Source of the DNA: Escherichia phage TL-2011b
Direction: 5' to 3' (one strand)
Sequence record: JQ011317
DNA length: 44,784 nt
A model generated the notes under the pieces. It was not told the DNA's origin. It saw nothing but the letters and a program-made list of their open reading frames with translations, and did not search any database. The translations under genes were made by a program, and so were the position numbers. Within the stretch, counting starts at the first letter, position 1. Each line of letters begins with the position of its first letter. Of the stretch, positions 5,285-35,560 are shown one piece after another.

Positions 5285-5305
5285 TACTTACTGAAAACTA
5301 TAGTT

Positions 5306-15130: not shown

Positions 15131-15144
15131 CCGGAGTCATTGAA

Positions 15145-16824: not shown

Positions 16825-17117
16825 CAGATTACGAAGACGATCAACTGAAAGAAGAAAACGCCCGTAAGCAACGTGACATGGCACAGCGTGAAATTGATGA
16901 CATTCGCTTTGTCATGAGCAGTGAACAGGGGCGTCGCGTTGTCTGGTCTGTGCTGGAGAAAGGCCGGGTGTTTTCCGCTATCTCTCCGATGGATGCTATG
17001 GCAATGGCATTTAATGAGGGGCAACGCAATCTGGCGCTGGAACTGTTTCAGCGCGTTATGGCTCATTGCCCTGAACAGTATTTGAAGATGGCCAAAGAGG
17101 CCAGTGAACAGGAGTGA
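16821..17117 (+). CDS. Hypothetical head-module protein (98 aa)
   Basis: ATGA-coupled to the portal gene. Confidence 0.45.
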   Translation: MTDYEDDQLKEENARKQRDMAQREIDDIRFVMSSEQGRRVVWSVLEKGRVFSAISPMDAMAMAFNEGQRNLALELFQRVMAHCPEQYLKMAKEASEQE

Positions 17118-17119
17118 TC

Positions 17120-17815
17120 ATGAATTTATTTGAGCGTTTGCTGTATCGCCGTCTTTGCAATGAGCAACCAGTCGATGGTGGAGCAGCTCCGGCTGCGTCA
17201 GAACCGTCAGCGCCTGCAGGTGATAACCCTGCTCCAGTTGGTGATCCATCACAACAGGAAGGTGATAAGCCACAACCTGTTGCTGATGGCGATAAACCTG
17301 CTGATGACAAAAAGCCTGAAAACGATAAGCAGGATGAAAAAAAGGACGGCGATAAACCAGAGGGTGCGCCTGAGAAGTACGAGTTTCAGGCTGCCGAAGG
17401 CGTAGAGCTGGATACAGAAGCGTTGAAGGAGTTCGAGCCGGTGGCGCGAGAACTTAACCTGACCAACGAGCAAGCGCAAAAGCTGGTTGATGCTTATCCG
17501 AAGATTCTGGCAGGTGTGCAGCAGCGCCAGGCAGAAGCCTGGCAGAAAACAACCGAGCAGTGGGCTGCTGATGTAAAAGCTGACAAAGAAATCGGTGGCG
17601 ACAAGTTGATTTCTAACCTTAGCGCCGCACAGCGTGCGCTTGACCAGTTCGGGACACCTGAGCTCAAAGAATATCTGAACACCACCGGACTGGGTAATCA
17701 CCCTGATCTGGTCAAGACGTTCGTGAAAATCGGAAAGGCGATGTCTGAAGATGGCATGGTCACCGGTGGTAATGAAGGCCAGCGTAGTGCGGCCGAAGTG
17801 CTCTATGGCAAATAA
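17120..17815 (+). CDS. Putative scaffolding protein
   Basis: Acidic, Pro/Asp/Lys-rich N-terminal half, coiled-coil C-terminal half; between portal and capsid genes. Confidence 0.5.
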   Translation: MNLFERLLYRRLCNEQPVDGGAAPAASEPSAPAGDNPAPVGDPSQQEGDKPQPVADGDKPADDKKPENDKQDEKKDGDKPEGAPEKYEFQAAEGVELDTEALKEFEPVARELNLTNEQAQKLVDAYPKILAGVQQRQAEAWQKTTEQWAADVKADKEIGGDKLISNLSAAQRALDQFGTPELKEYLNTTGLGNHPDLVKTFVKIGKAMSEDGMVTGGNEGQRSAAEVLYGK

Positions 17816-17823
17816 GAGAGGAA

Positions 17824-18816
17824 ATGACAATGGCTGTTAAAGGCTTAACTGCGCTAACGCTGGCTGACTGGGGTAAGCGCGTCGATCCAAACGGGAAAGT
17901 CGATAAGATTATCGAGCTTCTCGGTCAAACTAACCCGATCCTTCAGGATATGCCTTTTGTCGAAGGGAACCTTCCTACCGGACACCGAACCACCATTCGT
18001 TCTGGTTTACCTTCAGCTACCTGGCGTTTGCTGAACTATGGCGTACAGCCAAGCAAATCAACCACAGTGCAGGTGACCGATTCCGTTGGCATGCTGGAAA
18101 CCTATGCTGAAGTCGATAAGTCACTGGCTGATCTGAACGGCAATACCGCCGAATTCCGCCTGTCTGAAGACCGCGCATTTATTGAAGCGATGAATCAGCA
18201 GATGGCGCAGACGCTGTTTTATGGTGATTCCAGCGTTAACCCTCAGCAGTTTATGGGACTGTCCTCCCGCTATTCCAGCCTGTCTGCGGGTAATGCTCAG
18301 AACATCATTGATGCTGGTGGCACGGGTACAGATAACACCTCTATCTGGTTAGTGGTGTGGGGCGAAAACACCGTGCATGGCATCTTCCCGAAAGGGCAGA
18401 AGGCTGGCATCCAGATGGAAGATAAAGGCCAGGTGACACTGGAAGATGCGAATGGCGGCAAGTACGAAGGCTACCGTACCCATTACAAATGGGACAACGG
18501 GCTTGCTCTGCGTGACTGGCGTTATGTTGTTCGCATTGCAAACATCGATGTCAGCAATCTTTCAGAACCTTCCTCTGCAGCAAATATTGCGAAGTTGATG
18601 GTTAAAGCACTGCATCGCATTCCAAACCGTGGCATGGGCCGCCCGGTGTTCTACATGAACCGCACTGTAGGCCAGGCTCTTGATCTGCAATCTCTGGAGA
18701 AAACATCTCTGGCGATCAGCGTAAAAGAGACAGAAGGCGAGTGGTGGACTTCATTCCGTGGTGTACCAATCCGTGAGACTGATGCGCTTCTGGAAACAGA
18801 AGCCCGTGTGGTGTAA
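17824..18816 (+). CDS. Major capsid protein
   Basis: 330-aa ORF in the T7 gp10 position after the scaffold gene. Confidence 0.65.
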   Translation: MTMAVKGLTALTLADWGKRVDPNGKVDKIIELLGQTNPILQDMPFVEGNLPTGHRTTIRSGLPSATWRLLNYGVQPSKSTTVQVTDSVGMLETYAEVDKSLADLNGNTAEFRLSEDRAFIEAMNQQMAQTLFYGDSSVNPQQFMGLSSRYSSLSAGNAQNIIDAGGTGTDNTSIWLVVWGENTVHGIFPKGQKAGIQMEDKGQVTLEDANGGKYEGYRTHYKWDNGLALRDWRYVVRIANIDVSNLSEPSSAANIAKLMVKALHRIPNRGMGRPVFYMNRTVGQALDLQSLEKTSLAISVKETEGEWWTSFRGVPIRETDALLETEARVV

Positions 18817-18867
18817 CGCCTGTTATTAACCTGTGGGTCGTAACAGACCCACTAATGGAGAAAGAAG

Positions 18868-19305
18868 ATGATCACCGACAAACTGTTGATGTTCTCCGAA
18901 GCTCAGGCGGTTACGAATACCGCGGCTTCTACTGACGTAATCGATCTCGGTCCAATTGACGGAAAACGTCGTGATATCGGCGTGGGTTACCCGCTTGAGT
19001 TTTGGGCGCTGGTTAACACAGCCGCCGCGGCAAGCGGTGATGCAACTGTAAACATCCAGTTGCAGACGAGTGAGAATAACAGCTCATGGACCACTATTTA
19101 TGATAGTGGCGCACTGGCAAAGACCGCCCTGACAGCAGGTAAACGAGTTGTTTCTGCAAAGGTGCCTGCCGGTGTTCAGCGATATCTGCGTGTTAACTAC
19201 TCCGTCGCAACTGGCCCACTAACGGCTGGCGAATTCACTGCTGGTATCAGTCTTGATGTTGATGCCAATACGCCGTATCCGATCCGCTCAAAAGTAACTG
19301 GTTAA
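18868..19305 (+). CDS. Hypothetical virion protein (145 aa)
   Basis: GGAGAAAG Shine-Dalgarno; position after the capsid gene. Confidence 0.45.
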   Translation: MITDKLLMFSEAQAVTNTAASTDVIDLGPIDGKRRDIGVGYPLEFWALVNTAAAASGDATVNIQLQTSENNSSWTTIYDSGALAKTALTAGKRVVSAKVPAGVQRYLRVNYSVATGPLTAGEFTAGISLDVDANTPYPIRSKVTG

Positions 19306-19315
19306 GGTGATATCG

Positions 19316-19651
19316 ATGTCAGGTGAGAAACCAAGATACCGCGTTCTGCGCCTCTCTCATATCCATAACACTCTGTGGCCGGAGGGGGCAGAAATCGAAT
19401 ACGAAGGTGAGCCTGGTAGCGCACTGGAACCTGTTAACGATGCAGCCAGACAGGCAAAAGCAAAAGTTGCAGGAAAGGTGTCAATGGCAGCAACCAGCAC
19501 CAAAATCATCAACGATGTGTCAGATGATGGTGAACTGGATAAGCTCCGTGAAGAGTACGAATTGCTCTTTAACGAGAAGCCACACCATAACGCCAAAGCT
19601 GAAACGCTCCGCGAGAAGATCGCAGATAAGCGTAAAGAACTGGGCGTGTAA
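19316..19651 (+). CDS. Hypothetical virion-associated protein (112 aa)
   Basis: ATG at 19316 with AAGGTGA Shine-Dalgarno. Confidence 0.4.
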   Translation: MSGEKPRYRVLRLSHIHNTLWPEGAEIEYEGEPGSALEPVNDAARQAKAKVAGKVSMAATSTKIINDVSDDGELDKLREEYELLFNEKPHHNAKAETLREKIADKRKELGV

Positions 19652-19667
19652 GCCTCGCGAATCAGAC

Positions 19668-19689
19668 AAGGGGCTTCGGCCCCTTTATT
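19668..19689 (+). terminator. Intra-operon terminator/attenuator after the capsid gene block
   Basis: Stem GGGGC / GCCCC, loop TTCG, then TTTATT. Confidence 0.5.
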
Positions 19690-19701
19690 GCAGGAGTGTA
19701 T

Positions 19702-20025
19702 ATGGAACTCGTAAACCTCAAAACCGGCACTGACAGCTACCAGGATGAGAGCGGAGAAACCAGAACTCGCGATGAATACCCATGGGGGCTGTGCATCACT
19801 CTTAATAACGACACATTGAATAAGCTGAAGGCGCAACCTAAGGGCGTCGGAACGGAAGTGATGATAACTGCAAAGGCTGTTATTCGAGGCCTGTCTGCCA
19901 GAGAAACTGACGATGGTGTCAATCGCAGCGCCGATCTGCAGATCACTGATATGGCGATCGCTCCTGTTTCCGGGGGTGTAGAAAAATCAGCGGCTGAAAC
20001 TCTGTACGGTAACGGAGGTGAGTGA
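19702..20025 (+). CDS. Hypothetical virion protein (107 aa)
   Basis: ATG at 19702 with AGGAG Shine-Dalgarno; coupled to the next gene. Confidence 0.4.
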   Translation: MELVNLKTGTDSYQDESGETRTRDEYPWGLCITLNNDTLNKLKAQPKGVGTEVMITAKAVIRGLSARETDDGVNRSADLQITDMAIAPVSGGVEKSAAETLYGNGGE

Positions 20026-20630
20026 TGGCCTCTGTAGTAGAGATCTGTAATCGTGCGCTGTCCAATATTGGCAACAGTCGCAGCATTAACAGCCTGACGG
20101 AAGCCAGCAAGGAAGCGGGGGAATGTTCGCTGCACTTTGAGGCCTGCCGTGATGCTGTTCTTTCTGATTTTGACTGGAACTTTGCTACCAAACGCGTGGC
20201 GCTTGCAGATACGAGCAATCCACCGCCTGACTGGGAATATGCGTACCAGTACCCGTCCGATTGTCTGCGCATTACTGAAATTATGCTTCCTGGTGTACGC
20301 AATCCAACAGCAGCAATGCGCGTTCAGTACGAAGTTGGTGCAGACACCAACGGAACAGGAAAGTTGATCTACACAGACCAGCCGCAGGCATGGCTCAAGT
20401 ATGTATCTCGCGTTTCAGATGTGAACATGTTTGATGCCATTTTTATGGAGGCGTTGGCCTGGCGTCTTGCGGCAGCTATTAACATGGCGCTGACTGGGAA
20501 TGCAGACCTCGGTACGTTTGCCCTCAATATGTACAATCGCGTGATTCTTAGTGCTGGCTCGCATAGCCAGAATGAATCACAGGAACCACAGCCACCGGTT
20601 GACGAGTTTACCATTGCGAGGTTGTCCTGA
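20025..20630 (+). CDS. Tail tubular protein A-like (T7 gp11 position)
   Basis: About 200 aa, directly before an 823-aa gene, mirroring T7 gp11/gp12; GGAGG Shine-Dalgarno. Confidence 0.45.
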   Translation: MASVVEICNRALSNIGNSRSINSLTEASKEAGECSLHFEACRDAVLSDFDWNFATKRVALADTSNPPPDWEYAYQYPSDCLRITEIMLPGVRNPTAAMRVQYEVGADTNGTGKLIYTDQPQAWLKYVSRVSDVNMFDAIFMEALAWRLAAAINMALTGNADLGTFALNMYNRVILSAGSHSQNESQEPQPPVDEFTIARLS

Positions 20631-23101
20631 TGGCTATCAGTTGGATCCAGCCCAGCTTTGCCGGTGGTGAGATTGGACCGTCGTTGTACGGTCGTATCGA
20701 CATGGCGAAGTACCAGGTGGCATTGCGCAAGTGCGATAACTTTATCGTGCGGCAGTATGGCGGCGTTGAGAATCGACCTGGTACGCGTTTTGTCGGTGCC
20801 GCCAAATACCCAAATCGGAAATGCCGCCTGATCCCGTTCCAGTTCTCGACGGTTCAGACTTATGCTCTGGAGTTCGGACACCAGTACATGCGCGTTATCA
20901 AAGATGGTGCGTTGGTGCTGAACAGCAGCAATGTTATTTATGAAATTGCCACGCCATATACTGAAGCCGATCTGTTCCGAATTAAATTCACGCAAAGCGC
21001 TGACGTGCTTACGCTGGTTCACCCGGCATACCCGCCGAAAGAGTTGCGGCGCTATGCGCATGACAACTGGCAACTTGTTGATGTGGTAACGAAGAACGGG
21101 CCATTTGAAGATATCAATATTGACGAGTCAGTGACGGTTTATGCCAGCGCCAGCACCGGGACAATTACGTTAACGGCAAACGCCTCTATTTTTGGCGCGG
21201 AACAGGTAGGCAAATTGTTCTATCTGGAACAGCCAGCAGTGGATTCAGTACCGGTATGGGAAACCAGTAAGAGTACGTCGATTGGCGATATTCGCCGTGC
21301 AGACAGTAACTACTATCGCGCTGTTACGGCAGGTAAAACAGGCACTTTGCGCCCTTCGCATACAGAAGGCACATCATGGGATGGCTGGGGCGGATCCGGA
21401 GATGATGATACTGGCATTGAGTGGGAATATCTGCACAGTGGTTTTGGCATTGCCCGTATCACTGCTGCAAATGGAACTACTGCAACTGCCGAGGTGATTT
21501 CCTATATCCCTTCTCAGGTAGTTGGCGAGGATAATGCTAGCTATAAATGGGCTAAATATGCCTGGAACAGTGTTAATGGTTATCCTGGCACTGTTGTTTA
21601 TTATCAACAACGTCTTTACTTCGCCGCATCTACTGCGTTCCCTCAGACTATCTGGGCCAGCCGTACTGGGGATTATAAGGATTTTGGCAAAAGCAATCCT
21701 ACGCAGGATGACGACAGAATTATCTACACCTATGCCGGGCGTCAGGTTAATGAGATCCGCCACCTGATTGATGTCGGTTCGCTGGTGGCACTGACTTCCG
21801 GAGGTGAGTACGTCATCACCGGCGACCAGAACAAAGTGTTAACCCCATCATCATTTGCATTCAGCTCTCAAGGATCAAATGGCTCGAGCAATGTCCCACC
21901 AATTGCCGTGGCGAATATTGCTCTGTTCGTCCAGGAGAAAGGCAGTGTTGTCCGTGATCTGGCCTACTCATTCGATGTTGACGGCTATCAGGGGAACGAC
22001 CTGACCATCCTTGCCAATCATCTTTTTCAGAAGCACAGCATTGTTGACTGGTGCTTCTCTATTGTCCCTTACTCCAGCGCCTTCTGCATTCGTGATGACG
22101 GTAAATTACTGGTGATGACCTATTTGCGTGATCAGCAGGTTTTTGCATGGGCACCACAATCCAGTACCGGAAAATATGAAAGCACATGCAGTATCAGCGA
22201 AGGCAATGAAGATGCGGTGTATTTCGTCGTTAACCGAACCGTTAACGGGCAAACAGTGAGATACATCGAGCGACTGTCCAGCCGTTTATTTACCAGCGAT
22301 GAAGATGCTTTCTTTGTTGATTCTGGCCTTAGTTATGATGGAAGAAATACGTCTGACAGAACGATGACCATCACTGGTGGTTCTGGTGAATGGGATTACC
22401 GTGCGGAATATACAATCAGTGTTTCTGGTGGTGCGTACTTCACCAGTAGTGATGTCGGCGCGCAACTACAGTTCCCTTATACCGGAACTGATCCTGATAC
22501 TGGCGATGAAGTGTCAAAAGAATTACGTTGCGACATTATTTCTGTAACCAGCAATACCGCAGTAGTGGTTCGTGCTAACAGGAACGTCCCGTCATCCCTC
22601 AGGAATGTGGCCACCACGAACTGGCAGATGGCGCGCCGGACATTTGGAGGCCTGTCTCATCTTGAAGGCCAGACCGTAAACATTCTCTCTGATGCGAACG
22701 TGGAACCACAGAAAGTAGTTTCCGGAGGTACCGTCACGCTGGAATCTCCGGGGGCTGTAGTGCACATCGGCCTGCCAATAACTGCTGAATTCGAAACACT
22801 GGATATCAACATTAGCGGACAGGAAACGCTGCTGGACAAAAAACAGGTGATCCCGTCAGTTACTCTGGTTGTGAATGCCAGTCGCGGCATCTGGGCGACT
22901 ACGCCCGGCGGTAAATGGTACGAATATCCACAGCGAGAATTCGAGTTCTACGATGATCCTGTTGATGATGCTACCGGAAAAGTAGAAGTGAAACTGGACA
23001 GTAACTGGGGCAAAAACGGACGTGTAAAAATCCGTCAGCTTGACCCGTTGCCGCTGTCTGTTCTTGCCGTTATTCCTCGCCTTACTGTTGGGGGATTCTG
23101 A
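20630..23101 (+). CDS. Tail tubular protein B-like (T7 gp12 position)
   Basis: 823-aa ORF, size and position as T7 gp12. Confidence 0.5.
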   Translation: MAISWIQPSFAGGEIGPSLYGRIDMAKYQVALRKCDNFIVRQYGGVENRPGTRFVGAAKYPNRKCRLIPFQFSTVQTYALEFGHQYMRVIKDGALVLNSSNVIYEIATPYTEADLFRIKFTQSADVLTLVHPAYPPKELRRYAHDNWQLVDVVTKNGPFEDINIDESVTVYASASTGTITLTANASIFGAEQVGKLFYLEQPAVDSVPVWETSKSTSIGDIRRADSNYYRAVTAGKTGTLRPSHTEGTSWDGWGGSGDDDTGIEWEYLHSGFGIARITAANGTTATAEVISYIPSQVVGEDNASYKWAKYAWNSVNGYPGTVVYYQQRLYFAASTAFPQTIWASRTGDYKDFGKSNPTQDDDRIIYTYAGRQVNEIRHLIDVGSLVALTSGGEYVITGDQNKVLTPSSFAFSSQGSNGSSNVPPIAVANIALFVQEKGSVVRDLAYSFDVDGYQGNDLTILANHLFQKHSIVDWCFSIVPYSSAFCIRDDGKLLVMTYLRDQQVFAWAPQSSTGKYESTCSISEGNEDAVYFVVNRTVNGQTVRYIERLSSRLFTSDEDAFFVDSGLSYDGRNTSDRTMTITGGSGEWDYRAEYTISVSGGAYFTSSDVGAQLQFPYTGTDPDTGDEVSKELRCDIISVTSNTAVVVRANRNVPSSLRNVATTNWQMARRTFGGLSHLEGQTVNILSDANVEPQKVVSGGTVTLESPGAVVHIGLPITAEFETLDINISGQETLLDKKQVIPSVTLVVNASRGIWATTPGGKWYEYPQREFEFYDDPVDDATGKVEVKLDSNWGKNGRVKIRQLDPLPLSVLAVIPRLTVGGF

Positions 23102-23565
23102 TGATCGATGTTCAAATTATTCCCGCTACCGAAGAGCATCTTCAGATGATTTTGCCGGATGTTCGTCAGGCTGATATTGACGAACTGTATGCGGTATCGC
23201 TGATGACTACCGAAGATGCGCTGCGTGTTGGTCTGCGCACTGCGACTATGGCCTGGTCAGGGTTCGCGAACGGAGAACTGGTAACCATGTTTGGCGTATC
23301 TCCGGCGTCAATGATCGGTGGCAATGGTACGCCCTGGCTTGTCGGGACCAGCCGTATTGAAAAATATCAGAAGACATTTCTTCGCCACTGCCGACCTGTA
23401 TTGCAGCAGATGCTGGCAGTTTATCCGCGCCTGGAAAACTACGTCGACGAGCGAAACCATGTTGCCAAAGCATGGTTGCACTGGCTTGGATTCAGGCTTG
23501 AAGAAGCCGCGCCTTATGGTGCTCTTGGTCTTAATTTCCACAGATTTCACATGGAGAGAAAATAA
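23101..23565 (+). CDS. Internal virion protein (gp13 position)
   Basis: 154-aa ORF coupled to tail genes. Confidence 0.4.
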   Translation: MIDVQIIPATEEHLQMILPDVRQADIDELYAVSLMTTEDALRVGLRTATMAWSGFANGELVTMFGVSPASMIGGNGTPWLVGTSRIEKYQKTFLRHCRPVLQQMLAVYPRLENYVDERNHVAKAWLHWLGFRLEEAAPYGALGLNFHRFHMERK

Positions 23566-24110
23566 TGTGCGATCCGGTTATTGCTGGTGGCGCAATGCTC
23601 GCCATGAGTGGCATTCAGGCATACACCCAGTACCAACAGGGAAAATATGCCTCGAAGGTTGCAGAAGCGAACGCAGATATAGCCACTGCTCAGGCAAATG
23701 ATGCAATAAACAGGGGTAACGCTGAAGCTGAGCAACGGCGCAGAGAGACCCGACAGCGGCTTGGTACACAGGCGGCGACAATGGGGGCGACCGGCGCTGA
23801 TTTATCTACCGGTAATGCGCTGGATATATTTGGCGACGCTGCCCAGTTTGGCGCTCTTGATTCTCTGACGACGGTGAATAACGCGCAACGCGAGGCTTAC
23901 GGTTATCAGGTTCAGGCTGCCAACTATAAAGCAGAAGCCAGTTCAGCCCGTAAACAGGGGAATGTGGGAGCAGCAACAACATTGCTCACTGCGCCTCTGA
24001 AGGCATACGGTGCGTACCAGATGTTTGGTGGGACGTGGAGTCCGTTTACTCAAAGCACCCCTGCGCCAATCGGGGCAGCAGCAGGAACCAGATTACCCGG
24101 AGGATTATAA
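23565..24110 (+). CDS. Internal virion protein (gp14 position)
   Basis: 181-aa Ala/Gly/Gln-rich ORF. Confidence 0.4.
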   Translation: MCDPVIAGGAMLAMSGIQAYTQYQQGKYASKVAEANADIATAQANDAINRGNAEAEQRRRETRQRLGTQAATMGATGADLSTGNALDIFGDAAQFGALDSLTTVNNAQREAYGYQVQAANYKAEASSARKQGNVGAATTLLTAPLKAYGAYQMFGGTWSPFTQSTPAPIGAAAGTRLPGGL

Positions 24111-26827
24111 TGCCAGTCGTACCAACAGTATCAGGACGTCAGGTTGAGAGTCGTGGTGTACAAACCGGTGGTTTTCAGACCTTCGATGTTCCTCAAGCAG
24201 GTCAGGTGCTGGCGAATGTCGCAGATCAGTATGCGGTGGCATATGGTGAAGCCAGGCAGAAAGCGAATGTTGCATTGTCTCAGGATGCCATCCTTCAGCT
24301 TAATCAGCGCAGCAATGAACGTCTTTATAACCCTCAAACCGGTTTTTATGCACAACAAGGCAAAAATGCGATTGGTAAGGGGCAAGAGTACATATCTGGA
24401 TTTGATCAGGATGTGGAAGAAATAGCTGCTTCATTGACTGATGAAGCAGCAAGAAATATGTTTTTGCAACAAGCCAGAACACAGAAAATTCAGTTCAGTA
24501 CTGGAGTTCTCAGACATGAGATAGGGCAGACAAATGCCTATGAAGATGAGCAATATCAGGCAACGAGAAAATTATGGATACAAAATGAAGCGGATGCCTG
24601 GAATGACCCGCAAACTGCCACTTTAGCCAGAAATTCCAGAATGGTAGCCATTGCCAGATATGGAGCTGCCAGGGGATGGTCACAAGAACGCATTCTGGAA
24701 GAAATAGAAAGTGATGATCGCAGTGCCACAGAAATGCGGGCGAAGAATTATGCCGCTGCCAATCCAGAAGGATGGCTAAATGGTCTGTTTCAGAAAAATG
24801 ATTCTGGAGGCATGGACATGCGTGCCATACGCCTTGTTGAATCAGGTGATCGACATTTTAATCCTGATGGTAGTCTTCTTGAGGGACCGATAACATCTTC
24901 TGGAGAGAGAGCGCAGGGGAAATACCAGTTAATGCCGGGCACAGGAAAAGAACTGGCGGCCAAGCGTGGCGTTGAATACAACCCTACTGACGAACAACAG
25001 CATGAAATGCTCGCCAGTGACTATGTAAATCAACTGTATGGTAAGTACGGTTCCGAAATATTGACCGGAGCAGCATATAACTGGGGGATGGGTAACGTGG
25101 ATAAACTGATCGCCAAAGTCGGTGATCCACGTAAAGGTGAAATATCAGAAGAAGAATTTATCCGAAATCTTCCATCAGAAACACAAGGGTGGCTTTCCCG
25201 ATATAGAAAAAATAAAACTGGAATGGATCCGCTGACTATTTATCAAATAGATAACCTTGCTAATAGTCAGATAGAAAAGCAAAGGAAGTTAATATTAGAA
25301 CAGCTTGAGCCAGCTATTAATAACACCATGGCACAGCTATATAACGGTGAGGTTCCAGATTATATACCGGCTCAGGAGACCATCATCAGGGGGTATGGAA
25401 AAAACGCAGATAAAATAATCAATCAACTGGATATAGCGATTGATAACGCGAGAATATTCCAGGCAATTCAGTATTTGCCTCCTTCTCAGCAGCAAGAAGA
25501 AATGCAGAAAGTGAAGCCTGAGGTTAACGATCCTCACTATGCGTTAAAACTCGATGCTTACGGAAAATTGTCTGCATTGCTTCAGAGATCAAATGAAGCA
25601 ATTCAGGCGCAACGGGATTCACGCAGATTCAATGAGGCGCTGACAATAGGTGAAAAATTAGACCCAAGCAACAAGTCAATGCAGAAAGCTGCTGATTACA
25701 CAGAAATGGCGCAGAACTTTCGTATTAATGATGCCTCCACTCATGATGGGGTTGTTCGGCTTGTGGCTCAGACTGGCATAATGCCTTCGCAGGTCATCAC
25801 GCAGCTTTCAGCAGTATCCCGATCCAGCAATCAGGAAGTGGTTAAAAATGCGGCGGAACTGTTTAGTCGGTTATATGAAACAGACAATGCATCTATTGGA
25901 AATATGCCGAAGGATATGCAGGGTTTTTATCTGACTGTTAAGCAACTAACTGATTCTGGCATGTCTGCTGATGCGGCTATCGAGCAGGCGCAGAACCTTA
26001 CGTACAACCAGACCGATGCTCTTAAAGCTCAATTGGCATCAACGCAGAGTTCAAAAGAGTACAAAAATGATCGCAGCAAGGCGATGAATTCTGCTGTCAG
26101 CAATATGGCGCAGTGGTTCCGTTGGGATCCGTCTGCGGATGACCAGACGCCGGAAGCAGCTAGATTCCGTAATGACTATCAGACGCTGTATGACATTAAC
26201 TACCGCGTTGCTGGTGGTAACGCTGACGTAGCGAAGCAAATGACCAACCAGCAGATAGCCCGCACCTGGAGTATCAGCGAGGTTAACGGAGAAGCGCAGT
26301 TTATGAAATATGCACCGGAGGCGCTTTATCAATATGGGCCGTCAGGCTGGCAGGCGGCGCAGTGGAAAGCTGAAAAAGAACGGCTGATGTACGGTGAGCG
26401 CAAAGAGATTATAACAACCAGTCCGACGTTGCTTGGGATCACGTCAGGTAATGCTCCTGTAGTTGAGACAAAAACCCCTGAGAGTCGTATTAATGGAGAA
26501 TTATTCATAACCCCTGACGTGTTAACACCTCGTAATGGTGATTACGCCATTATGGTAAGAACTAAGGATGAAAATGGCATCGATCGGGTCCAGCCGTTTT
26601 ATAACAAACATGGGCGTCCTATGCGTTGGGAACCATCACTAGAAGATTGGGAACCTTATAAGAAAATGCAGCAGGAATGGGAGCAGTACGAGCAGGAAGA
26701 AATTATGCGTGGACAGGCTATACGAAACTTCAAAGACAAGCATCGCGCTCTGGATGAGCAGTATCAGCGCCTGCATAACGAACGTATGGACAAATTTAAA
26801 GATTACTTTTCGTGGGGATCTAAATAA
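24110..26827 (+). CDS. Internal virion/ejection protein with lytic transglycosylase (SLT) domain
   Basis: ATG at 24110 with GGAGGA Shine-Dalgarno (TAATG overlap); SLT-like motif RLVESG ... GKYQLMPGTG ... AAYNWGMGN. Confidence 0.7.
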   Translation: MPVVPTVSGRQVESRGVQTGGFQTFDVPQAGQVLANVADQYAVAYGEARQKANVALSQDAILQLNQRSNERLYNPQTGFYAQQGKNAIGKGQEYISGFDQDVEEIAASLTDEAARNMFLQQARTQKIQFSTGVLRHEIGQTNAYEDEQYQATRKLWIQNEADAWNDPQTATLARNSRMVAIARYGAARGWSQERILEEIESDDRSATEMRAKNYAAANPEGWLNGLFQKNDSGGMDMRAIRLVESGDRHFNPDGSLLEGPITSSGERAQGKYQLMPGTGKELAAKRGVEYNPTDEQQHEMLASDYVNQLYGKYGSEILTGAAYNWGMGNVDKLIAKVGDPRKGEISEEEFIRNLPSETQGWLSRYRKNKTGMDPLTIYQIDNLANSQIEKQRKLILEQLEPAINNTMAQLYNGEVPDYIPAQETIIRGYGKNADKIINQLDIAIDNARIFQAIQYLPPSQQQEEMQKVKPEVNDPHYALKLDAYGKLSALLQRSNEAIQAQRDSRRFNEALTIGEKLDPSNKSMQKAADYTEMAQNFRINDASTHDGVVRLVAQTGIMPSQVITQLSAVSRSSNQEVVKNAAELFSRLYETDNASIGNMPKDMQGFYLTVKQLTDSGMSADAAIEQAQNLTYNQTDALKAQLASTQSSKEYKNDRSKAMNSAVSNMAQWFRWDPSADDQTPEAARFRNDYQTLYDINYRVAGGNADVAKQMTNQQIARTWSISEVNGEAQFMKYAPEALYQYGPSGWQAAQWKAEKERLMYGERKEIITTSPTLLGITSGNAPVVETKTPESRINGELFITPDVLTPRNGDYAIMVRTKDENGIDRVQPFYNKHGRPMRWEPSLEDWEPYKKMQQEWEQYEQEEIMRGQAIRNFKDKHRALDEQYQRLHNERMDKFKDYFSWGSK

Positions 26828-29852: not shown

Positions 29853-30416
29853 TTAGCATGATTCAGGGGAAACCCCAATATTAAATATGAGTGACTCCCC
29901 TGAATCAGCATAATAATGTAATATTATTGACTTACGTTGTTTTCTTGCTTCGTAGAATAAACGCTCTTGCGGCGATAATTTGTGAAAACTGCCGGATGCA
30001 CAATATATGTTTTTTAACTTTTCGCGGGTTTCTTTTATTGTATCTTCTGATATGTATTTTAGGTATTTATCCGTATAGATGTTGCTACTATAAGAAATTA
30101 ATGTTTTGCTGTTGTTGTGATGTATTGTATTTTTATCGTTGAAGTCTGTATTTTTATTTACTGTCATTAGGTTTTTAATGATTACATGTAATACAATAGT
30201 CTCCCCATCATCAATTCCATATTTGATGTCATAGTCAGTATATTTATTTGTTATACCGCTTCCTGATAGCGGCACTATGTACTCTGAGAAAAATGAGTTT
30301 GCCGCGTGACCATCAAGAGCAATAGCAGTTTTTTTGTGGTAAAAATAAAACAATATTGAGAGAGTCAAAATAATAGCGACGCCTAATGCAACCTTTAATA
30401 TAGATATGGTTTTCAA
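29853..30416 (-). CDS. Membrane-anchored protein, low GC; candidate superinfection-exclusion protein
   Basis: TTG start at 30416 with AAGGAG Shine-Dalgarno (alternative ATG 30443); N-terminal TM helix; same strand and position as sieA next to mnt in P22. Confidence 0.45.
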   Translation of the reverse strand: MKTISILKVALGVAIILTLSILFYFYHKKTAIALDGHAANSFFSEYIVPLSGSGITNKYTDYDIKYGIDDGETIVLHVIIKNLMTVNKNTDFNDKNTIHHNNSKTLISYSSNIYTDKYLKYISEDTIKETREKLKNIYCASGSFHKLSPQERLFYEARKQRKSIILHYYADSGESLIFNIGVSPESC

Positions 30417-30506: not shown

Positions 30507-30939
30507 CTATTCAGGTATTTCAATTCCAAAACCATCTGCATCCCATGAGTTTTCACAGATGATGTAACCTAGTTCATTGAGCTTATTAAATGTTTTTTCA
30601 AAGATGATCTGGTAATCATTATCTGCAAGTGATTCCAGTTCAAGGTCATTAAGGTTTATATAAAAACTTGTATGTCCAAGTGTTATTTTCTTATTAATTT
30701 CATTAAAGGTTCTTTTGAAAATAATATTTGATATTTCATGTCGTGCATTGTTTGCAATAATTTTTGCTTCATAAGCAGAAATTACGTCATCTTCATGAAT
30801 ATCTTTCAGAAAGCTGGTGTCAAGACGTTGTACTATTTCAGCGTTCATTGATCGCTTATTGGCTTTTGCAGAAATTTCTATTTTTTCTTTTACTTCAACG
30901 GGAAGTCTGATCCCTTAGTTGTGGATCTTCTCTGCTCAT
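30507..30939 (-). pseudogene. Mnt-like ribbon-helix-helix repressor gene with apparent +1 frameshift
   Basis: ATG at 30939 encodes MSREDPQL then stops; the downstream frame continues GIRLPVEVKEKIEISAKANKRSMNAEIVQRL, matching P22 Mnt (MARDDPHFNFRMPMEVREKLKFRAEANGRSMNSELLQIV); one extra base near 30915. Confidence 0.55.
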
Positions 30940-30995
30940 GTTCTTCACCAAATATTGAGTTACTTGCAATGATTGAAGTATGCCTCACCGTGTGC

Positions 30996-31044
30996 TTGAC
31001 ATCAATGACGCACGGTGTGACAATTATTTTGCCCCACGGTGGGG
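30996..31044 (+). promoter_or_regulatory. Pant-like promoter with Omnt-like palindrome
   Basis: -35 TTGACA (30996-31001), 17-bp spacer, -10 GACAAT (31019-31024); palindrome CCCCACGGTGGGG at 31032-31044 (core CCACGGTGG as in P22 Omnt). Confidence 0.55.
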
Positions 31045-31059
31045 CTAAGGAGATATGAA

Positions 31060-31227
31060 ATGCAAAAAGCAAAAGAGATGTGTCAACGACGAGTTCGTTT
31101 TCCGGACGATGTGAAGTTAGCTATTGAAAGAAATGGCGAAAAAGAATGCCGAAAGTTCAATACAGAGATTATCTATCAGCTGAGGAAAGTGTATGGACTC
31201 ACTGGTGAGAAGAATAGCGTGGCATAA
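31060..31227 (+). CDS. Arc-like ribbon-helix-helix repressor (55 aa)
   Basis: ATG at 31060 with AAGGAG Shine-Dalgarno; RVRFPDDVKLAIERNGE ... NTEIIYQL resembles P22 Arc. Confidence 0.55.
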   Translation: MQKAKEMCQRRVRFPDDVKLAIERNGEKECRKFNTEIIYQLRKVYGLTGEKNSVA

Positions 31228-31237
31228 AACAGCGAAG

Positions 31238-31250
31238 CCCCACGGTGGCC
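31238..31250. promoter_or_regulatory. Second Omnt-like palindrome between the arc-like and ant genes
   Basis: CCCCACGGTGGCC with core CCACGGTGG; flanked by inverted repeat GAAGCCC / GGGCTTC. Confidence 0.45.
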
Positions 31251-31299
31251 AGACCGTCAGGGCTTCAGTATCGTAAAACTACGTATAGGAATTAACGAC

Positions 31300-32244
31300 A
31301 TGACGAGTATAGCAACAGCGGTATCTACTATCAACGTGCCATTCCACGGCGCAGAGCTTTATGTTGTCAATCATAACGGCGAACCATACACCCCAATGAA
31401 ACCAGTCGTTGAAGGTATGGGGCTGGACTGGAAAACGCAGTTCCGCAAGTTGCAACAACGCTTTAAGAGCTGCATGGTCGAAATGACCATTCAGCTCCCC
31501 GGTGATACTCAGCGTCGTCTGGTTATCTGTCTTGCTTTACGCAAACTTGCAGGTTGGCTGCAAACCATCAGCCCTAACAAAGTCCGCCCTGAAATCCGCG
31601 ACAAGGTAATCCAGTATCAGGAAGAGTGTGACGATGTGCTCTACGAGTACTGGACTAAAGGCCATGTGGTTAACCCACGCAAAGCTAAAAAGGCGTTGCC
31701 GGGTAAAATAACAACTGAACAGCAGGAAGCCATTAAACAACTCGTCATGAGTCGCGGTCAGTCTCTGCCAAAAGAAAAACAGGCTAAGGCGATGATCACC
31801 ATGTGGTCGTCACTGAAATCTCATTTTGGCTGTTCGTACAAAGAAATTGGTGAAGATCAATTTGCCGAAGCGTTGTCTCTTGTTGCTCGGGTTCCGCTTG
31901 AAGGGGAGTATCTCCCTGCTGGATCTGCATCAGAGAATGATGAAGTGGCAGTCAAGATGTTAGATGCGCTTCGTGAGGCAATTAAAACACAGACAAAATG
32001 TTATGGTTATCCATTGAAGCCCGGCTACCGCAGTCTGATTCATTCTCCGTCTGGTGTTCTCGGTCTGACGGAGAACTCACTGCTGATGAATCTGCTGAAC
32101 CAGTTACAGGAAGACGGGCACGATGTATCGGGCGCGGCGGCGGAGCTGACCACCATGTTCTGTTACATCGTTGGTGTGAGCAAATGCCTGCGTGATATCC
32201 AGACGCACGCGGAGTACATCAACGACAAGGCAGGGTTCTTCTGA
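31300..32244 (+). CDS. Anti-repressor (Ant) family protein 1
   Basis: 314 aa; N-terminal antirepressor-type domain (INVPFHGAELYVVNHNGEPY); C-terminal 77 aa identical to the second Ant protein. Confidence 0.65.
   Translation: MTSIATAVSTINVPFHGAELYVVNHNGEPYTPMKPVVEGMGLDWKTQFRKLQQRFKSCMVEMTIQLPGDTQRRLVICLALRKLAGWLQTISPNKVRPEIRDKVIQYQEECDDVLYEYWTKGHVVNPRKAKKALPGKITTEQQEAIKQLVMSRGQSLPKEKQAKAMITMWSSLKSHFGCSYKEIGEDQFAEALSLVARVPLEGEYLPAGSASENDEVAVKMLDALREAIKTQTKCYGYPLKPGYRSLIHSPSGVLGLTENSLLMNLLNQLQEDGHDVSGAAAELTTMFCYIVGVSKCLRDIQTHAEYINDKAGFF
32008..32244. repeat. Inverted repeat arm A (3' end of ant1)
   Basis: Reverse complement is about 97% identical to 33420-33656 (3 mismatches in the first 84 bp compared by hand). 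Confidence 0.7.
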
Positions 32245-32281
32245 CGGGCGGCGGCACAGGGATGTGCAAAACGAAACTATC

Positions 32282-32293: not shown

Positions 32294-32294
32294 A

Positions 32295-32320
32295 GGCCGC
32301 TTTCGCGGCCTTGTTCTTTT
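32295..32320 (+). terminator. Rho-independent terminator after ant1
   Basis: Stem GGCCGC / GCGGCC, loop TTTC, then TTGTTCTTTT. Confidence 0.65.
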
Positions 32321-32480
32321 AACGAATGCCACCGCCGCCCGGGCGGGAATCCGCAGAACGCCCACCGCAGCGGGAGCCGTCAGCGGCAGTATCGCTGTCG
32401 TGCTGACAACGACCGGCAAAGGCCTGAGTTGAAGCTACCAGAGACAACAAAACGAACAGTGCAGCAAATGCTTTTTTCAT
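32319..32480 (-). CDS. Small secreted peptide (53-aa precursor), Gly/Cys-rich
   Basis: Textbook Sec signal peptide MKKAFAALFVLLSLVASTQAFA; predicted mature 31-aa peptide with two Cys. Confidence 0.45.
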   Translation of the reverse strand: MKKAFAALFVLLSLVASTQAFAGRCQHDSDTAADGSRCGGRSADSRPGGGGIR

Positions 32481-32550
32481 TGTGAAATTTCCATCTATAA
32501 GCCACCTCAATGTGGCGTCAATGAGTGTAGCACTGACTTTTGTTTCGTCC

Positions 32551-32574
32551 ACAAAAAAGCCCGCGCTGCGGGCT
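32551..32574 (-). terminator. Terminator of the minus-strand two-gene operon
   Basis: Stem AGCCCGC / GCGGGCT with plus-strand A-run (U-run on the minus transcript); overlaps the stop codon. Confidence 0.55.
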
Positions 32575-33118
32575 ATTCCTTCCATTTATCAGAAAAAAGA
32601 TCTTCTTCTAAAGGCATTGGTTCTGTTTTTGTTTTCTCAAAGAATTGATAACTGATAGTGATTGCTTCCTCTTTAAACTCTTCTTGCTCAGTTATGTTGT
32701 GAGCATCTGCGTCAACAAAAAACATAACCAGCGCATCACGATTGTGATTTACCGAATAAACTAAAAAGCAATCACTTGTTGGTATGCATTTTACTTGTAC
32801 AGACGCTATATTTTTCCATGCATCCCAAGATGATTTTTTACCAGTGTGTTTTTTATCACTATCTTCTGGAATATAGTCTTGGTTATCGACATGAGTATGC
32901 CTGACATTTAGTTTAAGCATTTCTGTCGGACGAGCAAATGCAGCATCTTTACCAAGAGATGGATGGTATCCCGTTTTCCAATACTGGGTAAAGGCATCAG
33001 ATACTTTCTTCAGCTCAAGATCAGATGCACAAAGGGCCGAGAAATTTTGCGTATGCAACACTCGACCCTTATATCTGACAACTTGATTTTTATCATTCTG
33101 CGACGCAGACGAACTCAT
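32573..33118 (-). CDS. Putative toxin, YafO-like (181 aa)
   Basis: ATG at 33118; blocks LGKDAAF, LNVRHTHVDN, CFLVYSVNH resemble YafO toxins as recalled; overlaps a small upstream ORF by 26 nt. Confidence 0.4.
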   Translation of the reverse strand: MSSSASQNDKNQVVRYKGRVLHTQNFSALCASDLELKKVSDAFTQYWKTGYHPSLGKDAAFARPTEMLKLNVRHTHVDNQDYIPEDSDKKHTGKKSSWDAWKNIASVQVKCIPTSDCFLVYSVNHNRDALVMFFVDADAHNITEQEEFKEEAITISYQFFEKTKTEPMPLEEDLFSDKWKE

Positions 33119-33272
33119 AATTTTCCTTATTGTTACGAGAATCAAAGAAAGCGCGGGATACGCGACTTGCGTGATCTTTTGTCATAGTAACTTTTACGTA
33201 CTCTACGCTTCCATTGAAAGAACGTCTTGCGGCAGCTTGCGCTCTACGCATCTGCAATTTTTCGTTTCGCAT
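33093..33272 (-). CDS. Small basic protein (59 aa), putative antitoxin/regulator
   Basis: ATG at 33272 with GAGGT Shine-Dalgarno 6 nt upstream; below the ORF-track cutoff; TTACC-N5-GGTAA site 61 bp upstream. Confidence 0.4.
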   Translation of the reverse strand: MRNEKLQMRRAQAAARRSFNGSVEYVKVTMTKDHASRVSRAFFDSRNNKENYEFVCVAE

Positions 33273-33347: not shown

Positions 33348-33419
33348 TAGTACGCTATTCACCCACAGTCTGCAATCTGTACAGAATTATTTAAAGGCAC
33401 ATCCCTGTGCCGCCGCCCG

Positions 33420-33656
33420 TCAGAAGAACCCTGCTTTGTCGTTGATGTACTCCGCGTGCGTCTGGATATCACGCAGGCATTTGCTCACACCGACGATGTA
33501 GCAGAACATGGTGGTCAGCTCCGCCGCCGCGCCCGATACGTCGTGCCCGTCTTCCTGTAACTGGTTCAGCAGATTCATCAGCAGTGAGTTCTCCGTCAGG
33601 CCGAGAACACCAGACGGCGAGTGAATCAGGCTGCGGTAGCCTGGCTTCAGCGGGGC
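33420..33656. repeat. Inverted repeat arm B (3' end of ant2)
   Basis: See arm A at 32008-32244. Confidence 0.7.
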
Positions 33657-34115
33657 GCTGTAGGTTTTGTTCTCTATCTTCATCGCCTGCATCACTGCTG
33701 ACGCCGTGGCGTTGGCTACCTGGTCGGCAACCATCTTTATGCGTTCTTCCTGCGGGAGCGAGTTTTTAATGTAACTTCCGGTGCGGCGGATCTGAGGAAG
33801 AACCTCACCTGTAACCCATTTACGAAAGCGGTAGGGGATAGTGCCTGGTGTCACCGCATCGCGGCAGCGGAGGATCAGTGTGTAGAGGCCTGACTCGGAG
33901 ATGATGATCGATTCTTGCTCACCGCCAGGGGTGTCGGTTGAAGCGACGCCCTTCTCATCATCATCAAGTTTTCGAACAGCATCTCGATGGTTTGCTATGC
34001 CTATAGCCCGACAAACATCTGAAGCGATAAACCATGGCTCACCATTAATGACGATTACCCGTATATCGGCTTGGGATTCGAAAGAAAAAATGGACGTGCT
34101 TTTTGTAGCTGTCAT
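33420..34115 (-). CDS. Anti-repressor (Ant/Bro-N) family protein 2
   Basis: 231 aa; Bro-N-like N-terminus (VIVINGEPWFIASDVCRAIGI); C-terminal 77 aa identical to ant1. Confidence 0.7.
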   Translation of the reverse strand: MTATKSTSIFSFESQADIRVIVINGEPWFIASDVCRAIGIANHRDAVRKLDDDEKGVASTDTPGGEQESIIISESGLYTLILRCRDAVTPGTIPYRFRKWVTGEVLPQIRRTGSYIKNSLPQEERIKMVADQVANATASAVMQAMKIENKTYSAPLKPGYRSLIHSPSGVLGLTENSLLMNLLNQLQEDGHDVSGAAAELTTMFCYIVGVSKCLRDIQTHAEYINDKAGFF

Positions 34116-34384
34116 AGTGGTTACCTTTTAGTCTGGTTAATCACCACTACCGACGCCAATCGGTTGGTGGTGAACTGTGCAGGGTTGGCGTAACCGGCTA
34201 AAAGGACCCGGCGCACCTTTCGGTGCCCCCACACAGCCCACCATAATACGAATGTGGCCGTGCTATACGCATAAAAAAACCGCTTGCGCGGTGAATGCGC
34301 CTTTTAGTAATCCGGGACGCCAATCCCGGCACTGGATTTTTCCAGTGCCCGATTACTATGGCACAAGAGGAGTGCGATGTAAAT

Positions 34385-34492
34385 TTACCGCAAAGGTAAT
34401 GATAAGCGCGGGGATATATAAAAATCAACCGTATTTGGTTGGTGGCGTTTAACGCTTGATCACCTGAAAGCAAGATATTACCTTTAAGGTAA
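34385..34492. promoter_or_regulatory. Two TTACC-N5-GGTAA sites in the 400-bp noncoding region upstream of ant2 and the zinc-ribbon membrane protein gene
   Basis: TTACCGCAAAGGTAA (34385-34399) and TTACCTTTAAGGTAA (34478-34492). Confidence 0.45.
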
Positions 34493-34512
34493 TGTTATTG
34501 TGAGGAAAAGCA

Positions 34513-35241
34513 ATGGAAGTTTTCTGGATAGTTGTTGGTGTGGTTGCGGTGATTATTTACGTTATCAACCAGAACAAGACTAAGATCTCTGATCGTACGG
34601 TCGTTAATCATAACAAAACGATAAAGACCGAAGATGGGGAGATAACGATTAATCGTACACAGGTGATAGAACACACCTCTACTCAGTTTCAAAAAACTGG
34701 AGGTAATGCGCCTAATATTTCCGCACCTCCTGCTTATGATAGTGCGGTAATCCAGACATATTATAAACAGCAGGAGTTAGCAAAAGAGAGGCAACTGATT
34801 CAGCCAAAGCCATTTACAGCAGAGCTTCCACCTGGAGTGTCAACGCGTCCGGCATATCATGGAAGATTCCCTGGTGATGACGTATCGTCTCAGTCACCTA
34901 AAAAAGCACCTCAGGCAGTATCAGAGCCAGCAAGAATACCTTCTGTATCGCCGTCAAAAGAAGAATCAGCTAACGAAGTTTCAAGTGCCCGCAAGCAGTG
35001 TTTGCGATGCAGAATAAACCTTCCATATGAAAAATTCAGGAAATCGTCAAAAAATCCAGATGGATTGACTAAGTGGTGTGCAAGGTGTCTCGATGGCCCA
35101 AAGAATACACGTCATATGAAGTGGTGCCCAATTTGTAATGTCCGCAGAAAACGAACCAGCTTTTACCCTAATAATCAAAATGCGGATGGCTTAATGGCAT
35201 GGTGCAAAACGTGCTGGGACGAGCACAAAGCGAAACGATAG
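34513..35241 (+). CDS. Membrane-anchored protein with two C-terminal Cys4 zinc-ribbon repeats
   Basis: N-terminal TM helix, Pro/Ser-rich linker, two repeats of C-x2-C ... DGL-x3-WC-x2-C. Confidence 0.5.
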   Translation: MEVFWIVVGVVAVIIYVINQNKTKISDRTVVNHNKTIKTEDGEITINRTQVIEHTSTQFQKTGGNAPNISAPPAYDSAVIQTYYKQQELAKERQLIQPKPFTAELPPGVSTRPAYHGRFPGDDVSSQSPKKAPQAVSEPARIPSVSPSKEESANEVSSARKQCLRCRINLPYEKFRKSSKNPDGLTKWCARCLDGPKNTRHMKWCPICNVRRKRTSFYPNNQNADGLMAWCKTCWDEHKAKR

Positions 35242-35264
35242 GCCGCTCTTGCGGCCTTTTCTTT
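35241..35264. terminator. Terminator shared by convergent genes
   Basis: Stem GGCCGC / GCGGCC, loop TCTT, then TTTTCTTT. Confidence 0.55.
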
Positions 35265-35538: not shown

Positions 35539-35560
35539 TAACTGTATAAATATACAGTAG
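35539..35560. promoter_or_regulatory. LexA (SOS) box
   Basis: AACTGTATAAATATACAGTA: CTGT-N8-ACAG with AT-rich spacer, close to the LexA consensus. Confidence 0.75.

Follow-up and report, generated by a model that had tools for sequence, protein, structure and literature searches.

The 44,784-nucleotide stretch of DNA from Escherichia phage TL-2011b (sequence record JQ011317; hereinafter the window, 44.8 kb) contains, at positions 30507-32244, a group of genes and regulatory sites that very probably represents an antirepressor control cassette homologous to the immunity I (immI) region of phage P22, lodged as a moron in a phiV10/epsilon15-like prophage, where it lies between the genes for the internal virion proteins and that for the tailspike. 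The original prediction, made from the letters of this region, had proposed a P22 immI-like module consisting of an mnt-like gene, an arc-like gene and ant, and this proposal is borne out by sequence comparison: the Mnt-like product is similar to P22 Mnt (E 3e-14), the product of ant is similar to P22 Ant (E 1e-42), an antisense RNA of the sar family is recognized by Rfam, and the regulatory DNA is collinear with that of P22, such that the -35 hexamer, Omnt, arc, sar and the start of ant follow one another in the alignment of the intergenic region with P22 immI. The sar RNA, which had been missed in the original prediction, is to be added to the annotation of the region.

Genes of the cassette

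The mnt-like gene (30507-30939, minus strand) is divergent from the arc-like and ant genes, in the orientation that had been proposed from the open reading frames (ORFs), and, if intact, encodes a long Mnt of 143 amino acids (aa). BLASTP aligns this product with P22 Mnt at 32% identity across all 83 aa, and it also matches the Pfam family Arc (PF03869) at 3e-12 and PHROG 795, the P22-type Mnt family, at 3e-19; thus, a Mnt-family ribbon-helix-helix (RHH) maintenance repressor is encoded divergently from the ant operon, although the copy in the window is frameshifted. Given that the alignment spans all residues of P22 Mnt, the similarity extends through the C-terminal helix, which in P22 Mnt is the tetramerisation helix. 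Past the end of this homology, the Mnt-like protein continues for approximately 55 residues. In the AlphaFold2 (AF2) model of the protein (predicted local distance difference test, pLDDT, 80), the Arc-like domain is represented by its two N-terminal helices, and there are also one long helix and a small additional alpha/beta domain; no strand is formed in the Arc-like domain of this monomer model. When the model was compared with PDB using Foldseek, the only matches were local ones to Arc, for the N-terminus, and nothing significant was found for the extra C-terminal domain.

Compared with the intact protein WP_000085730.1, the mnt-like frame in the window contains one extra C, in the plus-strand C-run 30912-30914, which puts the ATG at 30939 and the first 8-9 codons out of register with the RHH frame; the longest ORF that remains starts at Met31 and is devoid of the ribbon and helix A. 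The intact counterpart in E. coli OkiPb01683 is a 143-aa "Arc family DNA-binding protein" that begins with MSREDPQLRIRLPVEVKEK. Over a 91-nt query, each of the 36 complete E. coli genomes with the segment (36/36) shows exactly one column of difference from the window, and because in OkiPb01683 this single column is the extra C, the insertion appears to be private to the window. It would reflect either a sequencing error in the homopolymer or a mutation that recently inactivated the gene, and the mnt-like gene of the present genome is best annotated as a pseudogene or as containing a sequencing error.

The first gene of the ant operon (31060-31227, plus strand) is preceded by AAGGAG 7 nt upstream and encodes a 55-aa protein that is labeled "hypothetical" in the closest E. 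coli relative examined and is probably an Arc-type repressor. This protein matches PHROG 228 (Arc-like repressor) at 3.4e-5 and aligns in register with Arc, to which it is about 23% identical, both when its profile is compared with Arc from PDB (E 0.08) and in hhalign comparison with P22 Arc (E 3.9e-4). Its Q9 and R13, both invariant, coincide with Q9 and R13 of Arc, whereas position 11 is taken by R or K. A tblastn search with this protein against 50,697 phage records yielded no match. Taken together, BLASTP and profile comparisons of the two repressors, the check that had been suggested originally, link the Mnt-like protein to Mnt and Pfam Arc, and the Arc-like protein, in register and weakly, to Arc.

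The identification of the third gene as ant (31300-32244, plus strand; 314 aa) is upheld: the product is an antirepressor with a P22_AR_N domain (Pfam PF10547, 2.9e-45) and shows 39% identity to P22 Ant over 219 aa. The N-termini of the two proteins match, which supports the ATG at 31300 over a later start. The gene is a three-part mosaic in which the N-terminal part is the P22_AR_N domain and the C-terminal ~85 aa are common to the product of the neighbouring Bro-N antirepressor gene (see below). At the DNA level, the megablast similarity of the ant region to CUS-3 ant (85.7%) begins exactly at the sar terminator (31234) and ends at approximately 31909, and the 5' part of the gene is about 90% identical to the ant genes of Stx phages. 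A terminator-like hairpin follows ant (32294-32311, plus strand).

Promoters and operator-like sites

The best sigma-70-like site of the region is the Pant-like promoter (30996-31024, plus strand), which is present exactly in the predicted form, TTGACA (30996-31001) and GACAAT (31019-31024) separated by 17 nt; it scores 10/12 in the promoter scan and has a TG extended -10. The -35 hexamer aligns with that of P22 Pant and is kept in all six cassettes, that is, in the six intergenic regions from different genera and phage types, prophages of Yersinia, Enterobacter, Morganella and Raoultella among them, whose alignment provides the operator footprint described here. The candidate Pmnt (30977-31005, minus strand) is composed of TTGATG (31005-31000), a 17-nt spacer and CATACT (30982-30977); the -10 hexamer is CATAAT in five of the six cassettes, and the orthologous site of cassette L005 (TTGATG-17-CATAAT) scores 9/12. 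In L011, the promoter scan found no promoter. The -35 hexamers of the candidate Pmnt and of Pant overlap, so that Pmnt is probably located back-to-back with Pant. The P22-style arrangement, in which Pant and Pmnt overlap face-to-face, was considered and rejected: the P22-equivalent minus-strand hexamers are poor, and the conserved TTGATG-17-CATAAT candidate was preferred.

Three operator-like sites are associated with these promoters. Site C (GCCCCACGGTGGGGC, 31031-31045) is the counterpart of P22 Omnt in both position and sequence. It is the perfect 15-bp palindrome to which the originally noticed palindrome CCCCACGGTGGGG (31032-31044) extends, and the claim that the latter shares the core of the mnt operator proved accurate: in the pairwise alignment with the annotated P22 record, the 9-bp core CCACGGTGG is identical to that of P22 Omnt (AGGTCCACGGTGGACCT), and the centre of the site lies 14 bp past the -10, against 15 bp for Omnt. 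As judged by sequence, a predicted dyad-symmetric site is thus found just past the -10 of Pant, as expected of an Omnt. Site C is kept as GCCYCACSGTGRGGC, or GCC(C/T)CAC(C/G)GTG(G/A)GGC, in five of the six cassettes, with GCCCCACACTGAGGC instead in L004. Site B (GACGCACGGTGTGAC, 31007-31021) lies between the -35 and -10 of Pant, in the place of the 21-bp Oarc of P22, and contains no TAGA boxes; it is identical in five of the six cassettes, differs at two outer positions in Morganella (GCCTCACGGTGTGAC) and has an 11-bp core, CACGGTGTGAC, that is invariant in all six. Site A (GCCTCACCGTGTGCT, 30982-30996) takes up the candidate Pmnt spacer and borders directly on the -35 of Pant, in a mirror image of the location of site B within Pant. 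The consensus of site A is GCCCCACSGTGGGG, with GCCCCAC(C/G)GTGGGG across the six cassettes, of which the window contains a degenerate copy (GCCTCACCGTGTGC). The half-site-like repeats CACCGTGTG and CACGGTGTG do flank the -35, as had been reported, and both belong to these conserved sites.

All three sites are members of one family, G.C.CAC-S-GTG.G.C, and differ only at the outer positions, whereas the DNA between and outside the sites is variable across the six cassettes. In the window as a whole, CAC(C/G)GTG is unremarkable (6 found vs 4.45 expected); its clustering is not, with 3 copies in 56 bp (P ~1e-4 in simulation) and 4 in 262 bp (P ~5e-6), and all three occurrences of the longer pattern C.CAC[CG]GTG.G in the window are in the cassette.

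The base-contacting ribbon residues of Arc are Gln9, Asn11 and Arg13 (PMC12645479), and by alignment the equivalent residues of P22 Mnt are His6, Asn8 and Arg10. In the cassette, the ribbons are PQLRIRLP in the Mnt-like protein and CQRRVRFP in the Arc-like protein, so that the contact positions are Gln-Arg-Arg in both (with R or K in the middle in the Arc-like protein). On the strength of position, and because sites A and C share one consensus, it can be tentatively proposed, with slightly less than even confidence, that the Mnt-like protein would bind sites A and C and the Arc-like protein site B.

The sar antisense RNA and the second palindrome

The sar-like RNA (31231-31298, minus strand) matches Rfam RF00262 with 44.8 bits, against a gathering threshold of 43. 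It is complementary to the Shine-Dalgarno sequence of ant, extends to the base before the ant start codon, and has a predicted fold of two hairpins with a U-run after them (z = -2.6). The Psar-like promoter (31306-31334, minus strand; TTGATA, 17 nt, TATACT; 10/12 in the scan, with TG) lies inside the opening codons of ant, exactly as Psar does in the P22 annotation. The region therefore has a predicted antisense RNA across the ribosome-binding site (RBS) of ant, with its promoter inside ant and a terminal hairpin and U-run, as does P22.

The terminator hairpin of sar (31234-31266, minus strand) contains the second palindrome, CCCCACGGTGGCC, for which an Omnt-like operator role had been suggested. 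The location of this palindrome (31238-31250) is correct, but the operator role was rejected: the palindrome is part of the arc-ant hairpin that terminates sar, a GC-rich element (GAAGCCCC...GGGCTTC), and in the close relative L001 it reads CCCAACGGTGGCC, a change that destroys the dyad and affects a base left unpaired in the hairpin. Both the hairpin and the arc-ant spacer are conserved, the former in P22 and four other cassettes, the latter in the cassettes and P22. The pairing is kept on the minus strand by G-U pairs, which would be A-C mismatches on the plus strand, and in L005 the scan calls this hairpin a minus-strand terminator. The -10 of Psar is kept as TAnnnT in all cassettes. Given the conserved hairpin pairing, the terminator called in L005 and the conserved Psar -10, sar-like control seems to be part of the cassette.

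Predicted mechanism and alternative explanations

By homology with P22, we infer the following course of events. The strong Pant would drive transcription of the arc-like gene and then ant. In an intact lysogen, the Mnt-like RHH repressor would occupy site C, and probably site A too, which would keep ant off and make mnt autoregulated. After infection or derepression, the Arc-like protein would shut Pant, most likely via the near-invariant site B, whereas the ~68-nt sar, transcribed from the promoter in the first ant codons, would pair with the ant RBS and limit the translation of Ant. The Ant protein itself would inactivate a phage repressor by protein-protein binding.

Several observations weigh against this interpretation. 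Its weakest link is the Arc-like product, which has no match in Pfam or NCBIfam and for which the AF2 monomer is a low-confidence model (pLDDT 59) with two helices and no strand; with an hhalign probability of 36%, the case for the RHH fold of this protein, taken alone, is weak. The claim that it is related to Arc thus draws support from the position and size of the gene, from PHROG and from the in-register comparisons with Arc, and none from the Pfam and NCBIfam families or the AF2 monomer. The candidate Pmnt scores 8/12, which is under the scan threshold, and the sar match exceeds the Rfam threshold by only 1.8 bits; in cassettes L004, L005 and L007, Rfam detects no sar at E <= 0.01, although manual alignment and a terminator scan make the conservation of the hairpin and the promoter evident in L005 and in three others. 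The assignment of the repressors to the sites is open to the objection that identical ribbon residues could let both proteins bind all three sites. Finally, the broken mnt, if the frameshift is real, predicts by P22-like logic a derepressed ant and an unstable lysogen, and yet the prophage is resident, so that the control may differ, the target of Ant may be elsewhere, or the frameshift is an error. A real frameshift would mean that the Arc-like protein and sar suffice, that Ant spares the repressor of its own prophage, or that the prophage is otherwise impaired.

The frameshift also bears on two other explanations. One is that the cassette of the window is a decaying, non-functional remnant, with a real frameshift and with motifs inherited from a recently functional ancestor, in which case the module would control nothing, or ant would be silenced or irrelevant. 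This appears unlikely, albeit worth serious consideration. The 1-bp insertion is private among 37 copies, site A is degenerate compared with the family consensus, the prophage of the relative also has a frameshifted gene elsewhere, and degraded ant morons have been described in P22-like phages (PMC2629481). However, the Arc-like gene and ant are intact, as are Pant, Psar, sar and both site B and site C; the region is 97-98% identical to copies with an intact mnt; and the lesion is a single one, in a homopolymer run where a miscall is plausible. The other explanation, that full-length Mnt-like protein is made by a +1 ribosomal slip at CUA-AGG-G, is extremely improbable. The insertion does turn AGG-ATC into AGG-G-ATC, so that a +1 shift after AGG, a rare Arg codon in E. 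coli, would restore the frame and the sequence ...PQLR-IRLP...; but there is no evident stimulatory element, the next zero-frame codon, GAU, is not hungry, and the arrangement is found in 0 of the 36 relatives, that is, this is not a conserved recoding site.

With regard to the operator-like sites, it could be argued that the palindromes function not as operators bound by proteins but as RNA hairpins, which would terminate transcription or stabilise mRNA. The second palindrome is indeed located in the conserved hairpin that terminates sar, and the first one lies within the 5' leader of arc, where it could form a 6-bp GC hairpin. Nevertheless, the sequence of the first palindrome recurs at site A, in the spacer of the candidate Pmnt and upstream of the Pant -35, and this location, outside both predicted transcripts, argues for a site recognized by a protein at the DNA level. 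Furthermore, the position of site C is that of P22 Omnt, which is annotated as a site of protein binding, and the central base varies between C and G as would be the case for a dyad-symmetric protein site. A role of the palindromes at the RNA level in place of operators is accordingly quite improbable, and the P22 immI-homologous control cassette is the interpretation that we favour.

Location of the cassette in the prophage

The window corresponds to a prophage: on the left, its end matches the integrase side that adjoins guaA, and on the right, from ~41 kb, it matches the E. coli host genes yfgI to pdeF; the prophage site, between guaA and yfgI, is the same as in E. coli OkiPb01683. The virion gene block, compared over positions 15000-24157, is collinear with that of phiV10 and 98% identical to phiV10 and its relatives, which makes the prophage a member of Uetakevirus (epsilon15/phiV10-like). 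The description of the surrounding structural region as T7/epsilon15-like is consistent with these data, in that the virion genes are phiV10/epsilon15-like and the annotation of the virion block in the relative includes a core protein of the T7 gp14 family, along with an SLT-domain protein. The P22-like placement of the cassette, between the internal-virion genes and the tailspike gene, likewise matches P22. In phiV10 itself, only a Bro-N antirepressor gene with the C4 and isrK RNAs is found between the last virion gene and the tail fibre, and none of mnt, arc or P22-type ant is present at the equivalent place. The whole segment 29800-32300 is present in 35 complete E. coli genomes at ~97% identity.

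Next to the mnt-like gene, in the position of sieA in P22, there is a gene for a single-pass membrane protein of 187 aa (29853-30416, minus strand; TTG start with AAGGAG upstream; also 187 aa in the relative) with one N-terminal hydrophobic segment. The comparison of this gene with sieA holds for its position downstream of the mnt-like gene but not for homology: in BLASTP comparison with P22 SieA, the E-value is 0.15 and the similarity is restricted to the hydrophobic stretch, so that the identity with SieA was rejected. The protein has no match in Pfam and NCBIfam, and has a full-length match to PHROG 8033 (1.7e-128), a family of unknown function.

A tRNA gene is located within the prophage at 14423-14496 (minus strand; 73 bits in Rfam), where the relative annotates tRNA-Arg.

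Related cassettes in other prophages

Loci that combine a long Mnt, a 55-aa Arc-like protein and an antirepressor were found in Raoultella, Yersinia pestis, Enterobacter, Morganella and one unassigned contig. The order is the same at each locus: the gene for a long Mnt of 142-151 aa is separated by a short, conserved intergenic region from that for an Arc-like protein of 55-56 aa, which an antirepressor gene follows. In the four loci whose gene calls show the intergenic region directly, its length is 123-126 bp. The antirepressor cargo is interchangeable and can be of the Bro-N, P22_AR_N, or Bro-N plus P22_AR_C type. These cassettes reside in the tail or virion operons of lambda-like prophages (with L/K/I tail genes), HK97-like prophages (with tail tube and tape-measure genes) and Mu-like prophages (with tube and DNA-circulation genes). 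The loci with the cassette inside a tail-gene cluster are L009/L010 (Yersinia pestis chromosome), L011-L014 and L004-L007. When grouped at 90% identity, the long-Mnt family of Enterobacterales forms at least 260 clusters, and its N-terminus, MSREDPQLRIRLP, is nearly invariant. The cassette family is widespread and little described; no description of it was found in the literature searched.

A broader interpretation, which we regard as speculative and rather unlikely, is that the cassette represents a distinct, widespread sister lineage of P22 immI across Enterobacterales, Yersinia pestis included, that is always a moron in tail or virion operons. Under this scenario, two RHH repressors with the same Q-R-R residues would read one operator family at three phased sites ~24-25 bp apart, with back-to-back promoters, and the extra domain of the long Mnt would be a sensor or partner-binding domain that makes the release of the antirepressor conditional. 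If so, it would constitute a new input into prophage induction or cross-talk, and the existence of an mnt-defective copy in a stable lysogen would show either that the Arc-like protein and sar suffice or that Ant targets other prophages. Irrespective of this scenario, the cassette is common in the prophages of clinically important Enterobacterales, and the module adjoining it in the window, which is of the P1 type and shares an effector domain with it, is relevant to prophage induction and inter-prophage cross-talk.

The second antirepressor module and adjacent features

The adjoining module (33420-34348, minus strand) consists of isrK (34273-34348; 76.7 bits in Rfam), C4 (34163-34248; 77.7 bits) and a Bro-N antirepressor gene (33420-34115; Pfam 2e-21), with an a1/b1 target upstream of the latter. 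Given that C4 and isrK precede the Bro-N gene, this convergent module is of the P1/P7 immI type, and the moron island thus holds both classical kinds of immI, the P22 type and the P1/P7 type. The two modules are connected by a 292-nt inverted repeat, which is also present in the relative, with arms at 31976-32267 and 33397-33688 that are 91% complementary. The left arm is the 3' end of ant plus 23 nt and the right arm is the 3' end of the Bro-N gene, so that the two antirepressors share a C-terminal domain of ~85 aa, which matches PHROG 450 and 15539, both of unknown function. Recombination between the arms would invert the intervening 1.1-kb segment.

Two ORFs are located between the two antirepressor genes. 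The ORF at 32573-33145 (minus strand) is similar to the YafO toxin (Pfam 9e-6), carries the label of a YafO family toxin in the annotation of the relative and has no annotated antitoxin; the adjoining ORF at 32319-32485 (minus strand) encodes a small protein with a signal peptide. On the other side of the Bro-N module, the ORF at 34514-35242 (plus strand) encodes a protein that has a membrane anchor at the N-terminus and is Cys-rich and zinc-ribbon-like at the C-terminus; this ORF falls in a map gap (34407-35263) without a match to the otherwise collinear OkiPb01683 prophage.

The 15-bp palindrome TTACC-N5-GGTAA occurs 10 times in the window, compared with 0.03 expected, at positions 5172, 5234, 5946, 8227, 8289, 11590, 14819, 33333, 34385 and 34478. 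Three copies flank a helix-turn-helix repressor gene (~5291-5875, minus strand) in the manner of OL/OR operators, and two flank the promoter region of the isrK/C4/Bro-N operon; this palindrome is probably the operator of the main repressor of the prophage. Beside the second module, the interval that separates the tailspike gene from a minus-strand ORF resembling phiV10 p24 and epsilon15 p19 contains a perfect LexA-box-like site, CTGTATAAATATACAG (35542-35557), which may put the second antirepressor operon under SOS control. LexA-controlled antirepression by Ant/Rep was reportedly described by Kim and Ryu in 2013 for the epsilon15-like phage SPC32H. Inside the P22-type cassette, neither a LexA box nor the TTACC-N5-GGTAA operator was found.

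Comparison with known systems

SPC32H is reportedly an epsilon15-like podovirus whose lysis-lysogeny switch employs an antirepressor, to which the present prophage is comparable in that it has a LexA-box-like site by the second module; the P22-type cassette differs from that system in having repressors of its own and being free of both types of sites. The closest parallels to the second module are P1/P7 immI (C4 - icd - ant) and the isrK/anrP system of Salmonella, the same arrangement (34348-33420) being present also in phiV10. The control system of this module is separate from that of the P22-type cassette, and only the C-terminal ~85 aa of the antirepressor are common to the two.

In P22-like phages, including epsilon34, CUS-3, ST64T, HK620 and others, the ant moron is an independently expressed variable block of the late operon, located before the tailspike gene, that often carries mnt, arc and ant, whether complete or degraded (Villafane et al., 2008; PMC2629481). 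The DNA-level similarity of the 5' part of ant and sar in the window to CUS-3 is in keeping with such a moron. Unlike these morons, the block in the window is found in a genome of the epsilon15/phiV10 type, phiV10 itself being without it, and the cassette also occurs in the tail-gene clusters of lambda-like, HK97-like and Mu-like prophages.

With P22 immI, the cassette shares the gene order and orientation, the Mnt homology over the full P22 length, the N-terminal domain of Ant, an Arc-sized first gene of the ant operon, sar with its promoter inside the start of ant, a palindrome that has the same core as Omnt at a matching distance from the -10, and the location between the ejection or internal-virion genes and the tailspike gene with a small membrane protein gene adjacent. 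It differs in the 143-aa Mnt with its additional C-terminal alpha/beta domain, in the divergence of the Arc-like protein from Arc, which lets it escape detection by Pfam, and in the C-terminus of Ant, which is not P22_AR_C. At the level of regulation, site B is unrelated to the TAGA-box Oarc of P22 and resembles Omnt-type sites, there is an extra upstream site A, the ribbons of both repressors carry Q-R-R in place of the H-N-R of Mnt and the Q-N-R of Arc, and Pmnt is probably back-to-back with Pant, whereas the P22 promoters overlap face-to-face. The adjacent membrane protein is not SieA, and the host phage is Uetakevirus-like rather than P22-like. P22 immI is the textbook system for RHH-DNA recognition and antisense control, and a sister cassette that combines swapped ribbon residues with a matching operator core and has one operator more would provide a comparative test of the specificity of Arc and Mnt and of the evolution of promoter logic.

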